From the IMG/VR virus record IMGVR_UViG_3300031785_000002, positions 1 to 57,033 of that record: DNA of 57,033 nt, one strand, 5' to 3'. A model generated the notes under the pieces. It was not told the origin of the DNA and did not search any database. It worked only from the letters and a program-made list of their open reading frames with translations. This document shows positions 11,981 through 20,900 of this stretch, one piece after another. This DNA comes from a virus. Taxonomy: Duplodnaviria > Caudoviricetes. A program made the translations under genes and the position numbers. Each line of letters opens with the position of its first letter. The stretch's first letter is position 1.

Positions 11981-14900
11981 ATGGGGCAATATTACGTTCA
12001 GGGTAGCTCTGGTAAATACTACTCTTTTAATATATCTGGTCAGTCTCCTAATGATGCCGAGCAAGGCAAGATTCAGCAGATTCTTCAGCAAAACAATGAT
12101 TCATTGATTGGTGGTCAGCCCACCTCTGAAGAGAAGGGCGGGTTTGGCGCGGCTCTTTCTGGCGGCATAGACACGCTACAGCTTGGCTTTGGCTCTGCTA
12201 TAGAAGGTCTTGGAGAGTCAACTGACATAGACTTTCTGAAAGAATATGGCAAAGAAGTTGTAGAAACAAACAAACAACAACTTGCCGACAATGAACAGTA
12301 TCGAACCAGAATAGATGACATAACTGGCGTTGGCAGTGCATTGTCATTTGCTGGTCAAGCCATAGTTGAGCAAGTTCCCCAGATAGGCTCAACGCTTGCT
12401 GGTGCATATGCTGGCGCTAAAGTAGGCGCGGCTCTTGGCCCAAAGGGGGCAATAGTTGGCGGTATAGCTGGCGGTGTAAGTGCAAACCTTCCATTCTTTT
12501 ATGGCATGAACCGTGAGGCTCAAAAAGATGTAAGCCCTGTAGTTGATGAAGGTATTGCGGCCCTTACAGCCATTCCTCAATCTATATTAGATTTTATTGC
12601 TGACCGGATTGTGGTTGGCGCAATATTTACGCCAAAGTTTATAAATGGTGGGGGAATATTTAGCAGGATTGCAAAAGGCGCTGGCGCTGGTGCGGCGGCT
12701 GAAGTTCCAACAGAGCTTGGTCAACAAGTTCTTGAGAGACTTCAGGCTGGCAAAGAACTTGCAAGCGAAGAGGCAATTAAAGAATATCGTGATGTAGCAA
12801 TCACCGCTGGCCTTGTCGGCGGAAGTATTCGCGGTACATCAAACCTTATCGCAGGGGACAGAAACAAGAAAGACCATGCGGAAAAAACACGCCAGCTAGA
12901 TGAGGATTTCAGAGAGCTTCAACAAGAAGTTCACGGTAATGCCGCGCTTGGCCTGAAGAAGAAAAACGAATTAGCCCCAGACCCATCTGTTAAATCAGAA
13001 GTTATTAAGCAGGGCAATCAAGTAGAGGCACAGCAACAGGCAATTTTAAAAGCTCAAGAGGCCGCTGTTGCTGGAACATCAAGGCTGAATTTAAAAAGAC
13101 TCTCTGAAGAAGAGCAGTCTACATTGGGTCAGTACAGGCAGGCGATTGGCTCATCACAACGCCCCTTTACAACTGTTGCAGAACTCAGAGATGCTGGCCT
13201 TACTGATAGAGCGGATTCAATACAGGAACAGCAACTTGGCGTTCTCAACGCTAAGATGGAGGATAGGGCCACAGTAAAACATAAATTTACTCAGGCTCAA
13301 TATGACGCGGCTGTAGAAAGAGTGAAGAGGGATGGGGTGGCAGAAGTTGCCAACATCAGAGACGCCGCCAAAACAGAAAAGGGAAACAAGCCAGCAGAGT
13401 CAGTTGCGGAATCAATTCGTGATGAGATGATTGCCAATAGGGTTATTAAAAAAATAAACAACTCTGAGTACGTTCCCCTGTCGGAAGAGGACGTAGCGGC
13501 AGACCCAGCCACTGAGCTTAGAGCGTTGCTATCAAGAGAGCAGAAGAAGCTAGAGTCTAAAAGAAAAGCAAAAGAAGATATGAAGGAGCGCCAACGCGCC
13601 CTGCTTCAGTCTTGGGATGGCTCGTCACCACAAGAATCGGCTTTGGAAGTTACACAGAAAGAAGACGCTCGCATAGACAGTGATATTGCTGTTTCTGAAA
13701 AGACAGTAAAGAACATACAAAGACAGATTGACTCTATAGACGCAAGAAGTGGTGCGGCTGGTCAACTTGCTAAACAAACCTTTACTGCCGAAGACTCTAT
13801 GCTTGCTTTACGAGCCGCTCAAGAAGCATCTAAAGCAAAGCCACGGGCAGAATACGAGACTCGCAAAAAAGAAATAGCAAAAAAGATAGAGAGCTATGCA
13901 AAGAAAGACCTTGGGCTAAAGGGCTTCAAGTTTTCTTTTGAAGACGAGCTTGGCGGTTCAAGGCCGGGAACTGTAGGGCAGGGTTACTATGACCCTAAGC
14001 AAAAGCTGATTGCTATTGCTGTCGGAATATACGACCCGAATATGAGTGACGCTGATTACATAGCTCGCTTAAAGGGTGTGATGAACCATGAGGTTATCCA
14101 TGCACTGCGCGATGCCCGACTGTTTACAGATGCAGAGTTCCAAACTTTAGTCAACGCCGCAAATAAAAGAAAAGTGACCGTTGTTCGCAATGGCGAGAAC
14201 GTACAGCGTGATTATAACTTTGTGGACAGAGCGCTTAAATTAAACAGAAGAAGAGATGGGGAAACAGATGCTCAGTTCACAGCTAGGGTAAACGAAGAAG
14301 CTGTAGCGGAAATGTTTAGGTCATACGCTGACGGCAGACTGAAGGTGGCTGGCAAGCCCCTGTCTCTGTTCAAGAGGATTATTAATTTCTTCTTAGGTGT
14401 AAAGTCTGCACATATTGACACAGGCTTTGATAGCGTTGATGCAATATTTGAAGACATCAAGACAGGAAAGATTGGGAGCAGAAGTCAAACAGACCTAGAA
14501 GGGCGTGTACGCAGAAGAGGTGACCCTGTGCAAGAGGCCGTAGATGAGTTGGCTATAGAGTCAGCATATACTGCCTTTGATGCAGATGACCCAGAAGACT
14601 ATGTTGCAATGTCCGTGGCTGACAGAGACTTCTCAGAGGTTGGCGATGTCAGTATTTTGCCAGATGAAGCCCTGCAAAACGCACAATTCATCAGGGCAAA
14701 CAAGCAAAAATCCACCGACCAAAAGAAAATCATGGGCAAGCTGTTTGCCAATAGAGATTTAGACGATGGTACAATAGTTTCTATTAGACCAAATCTAAAT
14801 GGATTTATAGAGGGCGATAATGGGCGTTTGCAAATGACCCAAACCGTCCATGAAGGGCGTAACTACAGCACGGCACTTGGCTATGACATATTTGCGACTG

Positions 14901-17900: not shown

Positions 17901-20900
17901 GCGGTGACTTCAACATGGACTTGCGTATGGAATGGAAAAGCCCATCACACAAATCCCCACCTCTTGTCCTGTCACTTCAGTACATAGCAAACAGAAAAAA
18001 TCCCTTTTACACTGTACGCACATTCTACCCTGAACTTTCTGACACTTCCTACAAGGGGTTGATGAAGGAAAAGAAGGTGGGCAGATTTGACGAAATGTCA
18101 GTTCCGCTTGCACCAGAAACAGTCAGGCTTGGTCAGCAGATAACAGAGAATCAGCATCACATAGTCTACTCAAAGTCCTATGATGTTTTGTCAAAGGCTA
18201 TGAAAATGATTCCGCTTGTTAGTGACCAGAAAGCGGAGGACATAACAAAAGAATTTATTATGCGCTTCCAAGACAGGATGTTGCCTGTCGGACAGATTAT
18301 AGATGAGTTGCGCTCTAAAGGGGCAAACATCACAGACGCCTTGGACACATACCAAAAAGAAAGTTTGTACCATGGTATAACTGGTGAGCGTATCAACACA
18401 GCAACTGACGGTCTTTACAAGCCAACAGCAGAGCTAGTGTCAACCTTAGATGTAGACGCAGATTTTGATGCGCTTGATTCTGAGTTTGCTAAATATTCTT
18501 TTGAGACAACTGGCAGTAAGAAGGTTGCCGCCATAGAGGCATATCTATATGCGCTACACGCAAAAGAAAGAAACGAATACATACGAACTATAGACCCAAG
18601 CAATGACTCAGGGTCTGGTATGGATGATGCACAAGCTGACAGAATATTGAACTGGGAGCGCTCACTTAACGAAACAGAAAGAGCAAAGTTTTTTGAAATT
18701 AGAAGCCGTGTTCGTGACATAATAGCCGACACAAATAAAATTAGAAGAGATGCCGGGTTAATACCAGAAAACTTTGAGGAAGACCCAGCCGCTATTGACG
18801 AAGAGGGTAAAGAATTTAAACCGCCCCCTGTTTATTCTGATTATGTTCCGCTTAGAGGAATACTAGACCCGATGGGAGAGGCAAATGAAGATGCTTCTTT
18901 CGCTGGCACTGGTGGGGCTTCTTATTCAGTGAGGGGAAGAGAAGATAAAAGAGCGCTTGGTAGAGATACATACCCAACAAACCTACTTGCTGGGGTTTTT
19001 ATGCAACATCAAAACTCAATCATACGCTCTGAAAAGAATGAAGTTGCCAAGTCGTTCTTAAATTTGCTGAAGGCCAATAGAGACGGCATGGCAGATTACG
19101 CTATAGAACTAAAGACAATGCCGATGAAAAGAGGCATAGTTAATGGTACAGTTCGAGTGATACCAGACTTAACAGCTTCACAAGACCCAAGCATTTTGCA
19201 GGTTAAGCAAAATGGTAATGTTACTCGAATTAGACTAAAAGACGCACGTTTGGCTAGGGCGTTGAACGGAAGTGTGGGAGTAAGCCCGCAAACATCAAAT
19301 GCACTTACTCGTAGCTTGGGTGTACTTAACAGATATCTTTCAAACATCAATACATCTTTTAACCCTGAGTTTCTTGTCACCAATATGTTCCGTGACATAC
19401 AAACCGCTGGCGTAAACGTCAATCAATATGAACGCGCTGGTTTAACCAAAGAGGTAATGAAGAACTTTAAACAAGCCTTTAAAGGTGTAAGGGATGTTGT
19501 TCGTACTGAGGGTCAAGCATCAAACATAACAAGAGAAATGGCAGAGAAGGCTGACTTTGATATAGATAAAATATCAAATGCAGATTTGTTTAGGCTGTTC
19601 CAGATATATGGTGGACAGAACGCAACAAACATGATGTCTGACCTTGCAGACCAAGTTAATAATGTAAACAGCTTAGTTGGTGATATAGCTGAGTCTGGCG
19701 CTAGAGGCCAATGGAATAAAATTAAAAATAGTTTTGTTGGAGAGAAGACGGGTTCACTTTTAAAACTTCTTGAAGATTACAACACTGTCGTGGAAAACGC
19801 TATCCGTGTCGCAACCTTCAAAGCCCTTGCCCCTAAGATTGGCTTTCAAAAGGCCGCATTTGCCGCGAGAAACGTAACCGTTGATTTCGCAAAGGGTGGT
19901 GAGTACAAGAACGCAATGAACTCTGCGTATCTGTTCTACAACGCATCACTGCAAGGCTCGTTTGCCCTTTTGAATGCCGCAACACGTTCAGCAAAGGTTC
20001 GTAAGATTTGGGCTGGGTTGATTGTGTTTGGAATTGTACAAGACCAGCTTAACGCCGCGTTCTCAGAAGAGGATGAGGATGGTGAGTTGGTGTACGATAA
20101 AACACCTCAATACATCTTAGAACACAATATGATATTCCCAATGTTTGGATTAGGGCCGACAGAGCGCTCTGAACTTGCGATACCTATGCCGTATGGCCTG
20201 AACATGGCTGTAAACTTTGGGCGCTCACTTAGCAGATACGCCAGAGGAGCTTACACCGTTGGGGAGGCTGGCAGTAGCATAATCGGTACAGCAGTGGACA
20301 CGATTAATCCTTTGGGCGGCACAAACAACTTCTTTAACTTTGTAGCGCCAACAATATTTGACCCATTCATTGATATCTACAGCAATGAGGAAGAGTTTTC
20401 TGGTAGGCCTATTACAAAAGAGACATCGCCATTTGACCCAACTCCACCACCTGACAGTCAGCTATACTGGTCTACAACAAGTCCATCAGCCAAGTGGATA
20501 GCGGCAAACCTTAACTCTCTTACTGGCGGCAATGCCATTCAAAGCGGCATCGTTGATGTGTCACCAGACCTTTTGGAATATTGGGTTGGCTTTTTAACTG
20601 GTGGCGCTGGTATGTTTGCACAGCGCTCCGTTGACCTTGCAACTGAAACAATCCCGACCGCTCTTACAGAGGGATTTGAAGATGAAATGGTTAGGCAGAT
20701 ACCGTTTGCCAGAAAGGTATTTTATAGTGTCTCTGAAAGAGAAGACCTGAGCGGCTTTATAGAAAACAGAAACAAAGTTCTACAGGCACAAGAGTTACTT
20801 AAATCCGCTCTTGAGGCTGGTGACCCTGCACAGGCAAGAAGTGTAAGGCAAAGGTATGCAACAGAGTTGCGTATATCTGGTCAGGTAAAGGCGCTCAACA

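Follow-up and report, generated by a model that had tools for sequence, protein, structure and literature searches.

A short motif repeated at the cargo-module boundaries of a giant LPD38 phage protein, a possible site of self-processing

The giant open reading frame (ORF) of IMG/VR virus record IMGVR_UViG_3300031785_000002 encodes a protein of 3023 amino acids (aa) in which a short motif, D-[FY]-[SM]-x-[VI](-P), precedes every cargo module and the C-terminal part. The window, that is, the whole stretch of DNA that was analyzed, is the entire record (57,033 bases; completeness estimate 96%). In the arrangement that we propose, a fixed frame would be made up of an N-terminal virion part, a zincin domain and an LPD38-bearing C-terminal part (~980 aa), and the cargo would be four exchangeable modules, one of them DNA-glycosylase-like, placed between the zincin and the C-terminal part. 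The motif may be the site where the protein's own zincin splits the chain into separate modules. We favor cleavage at the motif by the resident zincin tentatively, at somewhat less than even confidence, and we infer alike that a cut occurs, which enzyme makes it, at which bond and when.

Motif copies in the giant protein

Four copies of the strict form, [RK]DF[SM][ES]V (B1 to B4), and a variant, RFDEMSV (B5), were found exactly where the original prediction, which was made from the DNA letters without database searches, had placed them, as were the zincin strings HEVIH and EEAVAE. The motif-to-motif intervals of 215, 520, 219 and 175 aa bore out the predicted spacing of the modules. The LPD38-like C terminus that had been predicted was confirmed by Pfam (LPD38, PF18857, at aa 2704-2892, nucleotides (nt) 20090-20656; E 2.7e-35; 122.6 bits with a cut-off of 27). 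The parts of the protein are listed below, with the predicted local distance difference test (pLDDT) of the structure models where it bears on the part.

11981..21052, plus strand: giant ORF, a single ORF of 3023 aa; Pfam LPD38, PHROG matches at both ends
11981..13900, plus strand: N-terminal conserved part, aa 1 to ~640; hydrophobic stretches rich in Gly and Ala, followed by sequence that resembles a coiled coil
13907..14422, plus strand: zincin domain, aa 643-814; conserved residues, weak fold matches
14087-14101, plus strand: HEVIH, aa 703; the sole HExxH of the protein
14294-14311, plus strand: EEAVAE, aa 772; downstream Glu motif
14624..14641, plus strand: B1, RDFSEV, aa 882-887; within a stretch of pLDDT<50 (aa 846-888)
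14645..15280, plus strand: module M1, aa 889-1100; beta-rich, block pLDDT mostly 74-93
15287..15304, plus strand: B2, KDFSEV, aa 1103-1108; within a stretch of pLDDT<50 (aa 1101-1111)
15314..16789, plus strand: module M2, aa 1112-1603; core aa 1200-1487 (nt 15578-16441) with predicted HhH-GPD DNA-glycosylase fold
16865..16882, plus strand: B3, RDFSSV, aa 1629-1634; pLDDT<50 in both models (aa 1604-1646 and aa 1600-1640)
16901..17380, plus strand: module M3, aa 1641-1800; alpha/beta by model
17390..17521, plus strand: two conserved helices, aa 1804-1847 ('..DAFTERL..'), which travel with M4 in evolution
17540..17557, plus strand: B4, RDFMEV, aa 1854-1859; coil predicted with moderate confidence
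17558..18043, plus strand: module M4, aa 1860-2021; conserved residues, weak BECR-RNase-like hint
18083..18103, plus strand: B5, RFDEMSV, aa 2035-2041; within a stretch of pLDDT<50 (aa 2022-2066)
18104..21052, plus strand: C-terminal conserved part, aa 2042-3023; LPD38, and the giant-protein families phrog_14770, phrog_616 and phrog_10691

The number of strict copies far exceeded that expected by chance. When the protein was shuffled 20,000 times, the strict pattern arose on average 0.0007 times per shuffle and at most once, compared with four copies observed. The loose pattern DFxxV had a shuffle mean of 0.54, and 0.2% of the shuffles contained at least four copies. When similar 6-mers were sought across the protein without bias, the top cluster consisted of just the four strict copies, a marginal result in that five shuffles reached 3. 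The copies differ in their codons and the longest identity shared between them is 11 bases; thus, the repeat is kept as a peptide and not as a DNA repeat. Cassette exchange by recombination at the motif DNA is not supported, on the same grounds.

Module boundaries in homologs

A search seeded with aa 640-2090 recovered 137 proteins, all metagenomic and nearly all 1700-3250 aa long with LPD38, and 120 of them were compared with the giant protein. BLAST end-points on the query clustered at q836-866, q1109, q1619, q1633-1635, q1810-1887 and q2035-2050, and these clusters coincide with the end of the zincin and with the motif positions. Alignments of M2 mostly began at q1109, those of the C-terminal part began at q2035-2050, and the N-terminal alignment of most homologs covered q1-836. 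Module loss and relocation followed the same boundaries: one homolog (P0006) lacks M3, with the deletion beginning right after the residues equivalent to B3, and in two others (P0008 and P0113) M3 directly follows the zincin. In 10 proteins, selected for the motif copies noticed in them beforehand, 22 of 43 alignment end-point peaks had [RKD][FYW]S at most 22 residues away (5.9 expected; 2 for the reversed pattern). The original prediction that the motifs mark cassette boundaries is supported by this clustering of similarity breaks in homologs and by the loss and relocation of M3.

The motif columns are conserved in nine full-length relatives, the most distant of them 46% identical, and the linker flanks are variable. 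The forms seen in relatives were [RK]D[FY]SE[VI] at B1 and B2, R[DE][FY]S.VP at B3 (except RDEFSVP in P0006), DF[MS]E[VIM]P at B4 and D[FE][MD]S[VI]PL at B5. Shorter homologs of M3 plus M4 were also sought; all 10 matches were fragments of close relatives. Gene calls on several contigs of ~60 kb break the counterpart of the giant gene in close relatives into many short ORFs (P0262-P0270; 53-247 aa), which probably reflect assembly frameshifts rather than natural splitting.

A family-wide motif with lineage-specific forms

Judging from the homologous junctions, a motif of the form [RK]-[FY]-S-x-aliphatic-[PG] is spread across the family, and [RK]DF[SM][ES]V is its local acidic version. The same junctions in distant homologs read RRYSLGF, RAFSLKR, RRWSKIKF, RKFSVSPSNP, RRFSSIPTNP, TRYSVAP and KRYSLGA. 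In a reduced-alphabet scan that used no prior pattern, basic-acidic-aromatic-Ser/Thr ranked top in P0007 (5 copies, 0.47 expected), and basic-basic-aromatic-Ser/Thr ranked top in P0018, P0021 and P0041 (5 copies, 0.3-0.4 expected).

The zincin domain alone, searched against 1.84 billion representatives, matched 691 proteins at E <= 0.001; the best 150, mostly 2000-4400 aa long, were examined, and 122 long zincin-bearing representatives among these 150 were used for motif counts. The pattern [RKD][FYW]S.[VILA][PGAS] occurred 68 times in them, compared with 11 times for the reversed and 20 times for the scrambled pattern. Nearly all copies (64 of 68) followed HExxH, at 0.27 per 1000 aa after it versus 0.04 before it, and they were concentrated 100-1500 aa downstream of it, with none in the C-terminal 1000 aa. 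Pooled 4-mer enrichment over the same 122 proteins was dropped as a measure since conserved domain positions dominated it.

The form of the motif belongs, in these comparisons, to the protein and not to the module that follows, with all copies in one chain changing together. M3 provides the clearest comparison: it is preceded by RDFSSVP here, by TDLSSIP in P0008, whose other copies are IDLSSFP and ADMSSIP, and by TKYSVA in P0113, whose other copies are RAYSVA and KKFSVA. Because the copies within a chain change together, one co-evolving reader of the motif is favored over a cap that passively accompanies each module.

A distant member of 3228 aa (P0186) has five near-identical copies of [VASR]RK[FL][SA][IV][PIA][APA], for example VRKFSIPA, at aa 907, 1112, 1281, 1455 and 2306, the first directly after its zincin. 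Four M2-bearing proteins (P0104, P0108, P0110 and P0121) contained no [RK][RKDE][FYW][ST] when ~2.1 copies were expected, a sample too small to count; HExxH is present in P0121 and absent from the other three. The motif was not seen as a repeat in the proteins of Shigella phage Ss-VASD and Ruegeria phage 45A6, and the words enriched in these proteins were not linker motifs.

Placement of the motif in predicted structures

AlphaFold models were made of aa 640-1660 (mean pLDDT 75.8; 45-homolog alignment) and aa 1600-2300 (mean pLDDT 69.0; 37-homolog alignment), and in both the giant protein appeared as several distinct folded blocks with low-confidence linkers between them. The motifs had been predicted to lie in linkers and not buried inside folded domains. 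This held for B1, B2, B3 and B5, each of which lies at pLDDT<50 with a long floppy segment upstream and with the folded module beginning a few residues downstream. The fourth copy, B4, is not clearly disordered (mean pLDDT 74 for its 10-residue block, 88 and 90 for the flanking blocks) and is preceded by the two helices that accompany M4, so that its placement could be read either way.

The zincin domain

H703, E704, H707, E772, E773, A776 and E777 are invariant among 45 aligned sequences and lie on predicted helices. The domain belongs to the fixed frame of the protein; the cargo varies across homologs. Its structural matches, all weak, were Certhrax (Z 5.5), anthrax lethal factor (Z 5.4), PPEP-3 (Z 5.2) and ArdC (Z 4.0), and those resembling M34 had Z scores of 5.2-5.5 over 117-146 residues, below the trust level of the tool. 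At these weak scores, the matches are peptidases that cut linear motifs. Comparison of the family profile with PDB sequences gave coiled-coil noise only.

Some zincin residues vary with the form of the motif. Position aa 781, four residues after E777, is Ser or Ala in all 9 proteins with the acidic form and Asp in 39 of 44 with the basic form, and R769 and K798 also differ between the forms in a complementary sense. These charge differences would lend weak support to co-evolution of zincin and motif, as one clade amounts to one evolutionary event.

No protease besides the zincin was recognized when 51 ORFs of the window were compared with PHROGs and 11 of them (the giant ORF and 10 others) also with Pfam. 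The only matches to PHROGs with protease in their names were to the capsid part of fused protease-capsid families, and no protease part was seen in the capsid protein gene in the PHROG scan.

Cargo modules

The M2 core matched the Tm1821 Ogg structure best (3n0u_A; Z 15.5, root-mean-square deviation 3.1, 206 of 209 residues aligned), followed by OGG1 (Z 10.6) and EndoIII-3 (Z 10.3) and then by MagIII, Mag1 and MutY. HhH-GPD superfamily glycosylases accounted for 22 of the 25 top structural matches, including two queuine-salvage enzymes of the same fold, and Foldseek also placed the HhH-GPD family first. Conservation within GIDNK..GG..MDRIQ is complete at N1372 and G1383 and nearly so at D1391, and the hairpin is conserved. 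By its spacing, and not by residue-level superposition, D1391 may be equivalent to the catalytic Asp of these enzymes. The confident fold of the model thus identifies M2 as a predicted DNA-glycosylase-like enzyme. M2 shares its fold, the hairpin and the Asp with HhH-GPD glycosylases such as Ogg, EndoIII, MagIII and MutY; unlike them, it surrounds this fold with additional parts, to a module size of 490 aa, and has no match at the sequence level, neither in Pfam at E up to 1 nor in PDB with the family profile. M2 was the commonest cargo among the homologs found in a search that was itself seeded with the M2 region. For M2, a protein-atlas search returned DUF7178 clusters (score 0.92), a lead only.

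M4 has an invariant E1937 and nearly invariant H1928, R1932 and H1934. Its structural matches, a CDI protein (7m5f_C; Z 6.2), BrnT (Z 4.8) and colicin D (Z 4.6), were all below trust level and give a weak hint that the modeled M4 may be BECR-RNase-like. M3 had no match in a wide structural search with the model of aa 1600-2300, and Foldseek with the same model against PDB gave nothing at E <= 0.001 (best match E 0.27). M1, which was found only in close relatives and in P0112-P0117, was hardly probed in the structural search, in which glycosylase and zincin matches took up the list. The predicted cocktail of enzymes is thus backed in part, by M2, which has a confident enzyme fold, and by M4 as a weak RNase-like hint; no fold was identified in M1 and M3.

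In BFVD, one module in the model of aa 1600-2300 shares its fold with proteins of 120-140 aa that stand alone in Microbacterium and Gordonia phages (three matches at E <= 0.001, probability 1.0, 17-26% identity; reported without ranges, so the module is not localized). By these model-based matches, at least one cassette would also exist elsewhere as a separate gene.

Gene context and relatives

The giant ORF lies directly downstream of the following two genes.

9070-9993, plus strand: DNA ejection protein gene; phrog_4287, E 3.4e-19
9990-11969, plus strand: gene with transglycosylase domain; phrog_873, phrog_2276, phrog_7182

The record also contains terminase, portal, capsid, tail-fiber, lysis and replication genes. 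LPD38 was the sole match in a Pfam scan of the giant ORF, and the zincin, M1, M2, M3 and M4 had no match in it. PHROG matches were limited to the two ends, aa 48-291 and aa 2083-3021. The first of these is to phrog_6958, 'virion structural protein' (E 2.6e-18), and the windows of maximal hydrophobicity (aa 148-216) lie within the same N-terminal part. The C-terminal part is ~30% identical to giant proteins in 334 phage records. The giant ORF probably encodes a phage polyvalent or ejection protein that is packed into the head and injected, and the best explanation of the record would be an uncultivated podovirus-like phage with this ORF as its internal (ejection) protein.

Related giant proteins are encoded by phi24B (gp47), 933W-like phages, Bcep22-like phages (JC1 gp69) and Ralstonia, Vibrio and Ruegeria phages. 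They are about 30% identical to the giant protein over the C-terminal ~900 aa. In phi24B and its kin, as here, the gene lies within the virion module; only the C-terminal part is common to these proteins and the giant ORF. According to the available text of the phi24B preprint, gp47 has 2811 aa with LPD5, LPD1, LPD38 and a MuF-C metallopeptidase, is abundant in virions by mass spectrometry, is invisible in the cryo-electron microscopy map and was proposed to be an ejection protein; its authors suggest an action on the cell wall. The available text on JC1 states that gp69 (4515 aa) was detected in virions by mass spectrometry. Phage PTXU04 depends on its polyvalent protein for fitness. The zincin-to-M2 part had no tblastn match in 50,697 phage records and therefore no cultured relative.

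Four other loci of the record were noted. A GroES/Cpn10-like co-chaperonin (42010-42441; PF00166, E 3.5e-14) is encoded between the portal and capsid genes. An ORF on the minus strand (35528-36190) belongs to the PHROG 'ferredoxin' family (phrog_3704, E 2.7e-105) and is likely an auxiliary metabolic gene. A large HNH-endonuclease-family ORF (phrog_1314, E 9e-109) adjoins an ATPase ORF (phrog_1297, E 4e-73) at 30209-32466 on the minus strand. A metallophosphoesterase ORF (6173-7192; phrog_221, E 3.4e-31) lies inside the virion gene block, where a holin-like ORF (5743-6138) comes just before it.

Discussion

Zincins of the kind found here usually accept a bulky hydrophobic residue directly after the cut; a cut in the motif would therefore most likely fall just before the aromatic residue. 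Released modules would then start with Phe, Tyr, Trp or Leu, which are residues of the bacterial N-end rule. A single chain that is threaded through the tail and cut afterwards would deliver all modules in fixed amounts, and for this reason cutting after ejection would be the more economical reading; the alternative is cutting inside the head.

Several observations weigh against cleavage at the motif by the zincin. No cleavage has been reported for the giant ORF protein or for any relative found, and the available texts on phi24B and JC1 mention no fragments of the virion proteins. The matches that assign the zincin its fold are weak (Z 4-5.5), and one of its residues, L794 in the acidic form, is R/K in the basic form, a charge change contrary to complementarity. 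In the wider family, the six-residue pattern was absent from 80 of the 122 representatives and occurred at least twice in only 16. A de novo scan for internal repeats in 46 proteins ranked the motif as top cluster in only five (P0001, P0007, P0008, P0143 and P0186), and most top clusters were no better than those of shuffled sequences. The copies of the giant protein are also uneven: Ser is replaced by Met in B4 (in six relatives) and B5 is shifted in register. The coil at B4 may be part of the M4 fold, as modeled. Two proteins that have M2 and no HExxH (P0108 and P0109) carry PLDFDKVF directly before M2, which resembles KDFSEVF here, and part of B2 may by this comparison simply be the start of M2.

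The motif might instead be a linear docking motif that is never cut and that binds the portal, a scaffold, another ejection protein or a chaperone during packing or threading. We judge this unlikely, but it accommodates much of the evidence: the motif is disordered, conserved and found at the start of each module, a lineage-specific form would suit any co-evolving reader, and intact chains would agree with the lack of reported fragments for the distant virion relatives in the available texts. On the other hand, no partner was identified, and a docking role offers no reason for the fixed frame to retain an invariant peptidase active site, which lies shortly before the first copy.

Improbable in our view is a motif that has no function of its own and is a conserved cap at the start of each module or a junction relic of module shuffling. 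The M3 alignment of P0008 begins 5 residues upstream of the motif, as would be expected of a cap, and the occurrence of PLDFDKVF before M2 in zincin-less proteins and the possible inclusion of B4 in M4 point the same way. Against this, the same module is preceded by different forms of the motif in different proteins, each matching the other copies of that protein, and the motif is common to unrelated folds. A relic also fits poorly with copies that differ in codons, share at most 11 bases and are conserved where their flanks are not.

Slightly less probable still is cleavage of the motif by another protease, either an unrecognized phage maturation protease or a host enzyme, with the zincin acting on host targets or on the cell wall. 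Many ORFs of the record have no known function, for example that at 42438-43382 between the portal and capsid genes, and an effector role for zincins was considered by Iyer et al. (2017; PMC5512222), as far as its available text shows. However, the scan of 51 ORFs recognized no such protease, the capsid gene is without a protease part, and in zincin-bearing proteins the motif occurs almost only downstream of the zincin.

Self-cleavage at the aromatic-Ser bond by an N-to-O acyl shift, which occurs in Nup98 and in SEA domains, would make use of the most constant part of the motif family-wide, but it is very improbable because a strained, folded context is needed, the sites here lie in disordered linkers and Ser is Met in B4 of six relatives.

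If the zincin does cut the motif, the system may amount to a true polyprotein strategy, in which the zincin and its own version of the motif would co-evolve (acidic D-F-S-E-V versus basic R-R-Y-S-L), any inserted cargo would be released automatically and the new N termini would act as an N-end-rule timer. This fuller reading we regard as doubtful.

The logic resembles that of MARTX toxins, in which one long chain carries an internal protease and strain-variable effector cassettes and is cut at linkers. MARTX proteins are secreted toxins whose cysteine protease domain is activated by a eukaryotic cofactor; they are not homologous to the giant protein, in which the protease-like part is a zincin within a phage virion protein. 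The MARTX-like manner of release that was originally predicted is therefore apt as an analogy of logic and does not extend to a cysteine protease domain, with LPD38 as the sole Pfam match and the zincin as the sole protease-like part. Prohead-protease sites are cut by a separate head protease at a consensus of small residue-x-Glu. In the T4 gp21 and the phiKZ and SPN3US gp175/gp245 systems, packaged and ejected proteins are likewise cut at a short consensus; unlike in those systems, no such head protease was recognized among the 51 ORFs scanned here.

The concept of zincin self-processing has already been published. In the available text of Iyer, Burroughs, Anand, de Souza and Aravind (2017; PMC5512222), phage-type polyvalent proteins with zincin-like metallopeptidases are described, the metallopeptidases are linked to the same fold neighborhood as the zincin matches here (Certhrax, lethal factor, Pro-Pro endopeptidase and ArdC), and they are proposed to process the chain in the head or after injection. 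The giant protein is like these polyvalent proteins in being a giant multi-domain chain with the phage-only LPD38, an HExxH zincin and variable effector domains. What goes beyond them is that a particular repeated motif is described here, together with the forms that it takes in different lineages and its agreement with the module boundaries. Neither 'linker' nor 'glycosylase' is used in the main text of that paper, and no cleavage site or motif is named in the passages available. Literature on LPD38, judged by title or abstract, contained none on processing sites, and nothing relevant was among the matches listed for cleavage sites or interdomain linkers of polyvalent-protein metallopeptidases. 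As far as our searches reach, the specific site, its forms and the glycosylase cargo were not found in print.

No test of the processing proposal (Iyer et al., 2017) was found in the literature available in part to us, and a defined six-residue motif with lineage-specific forms makes that proposal simply testable. The motif also provides a criterion by which giant phage proteins from metagenomes, in their thousands, can be divided into cargo modules. The glycosylase-like module, unannotated so far and the commonest cargo, points to base-level DNA chemistry at injection. If the polyprotein reading is true and the aromatic residue comes first after the cut, the injected enzymes, including the DNA glycosylase, would be destroyed by ClpS/ClpAP soon after acting, which would give the phage a built-in timer.

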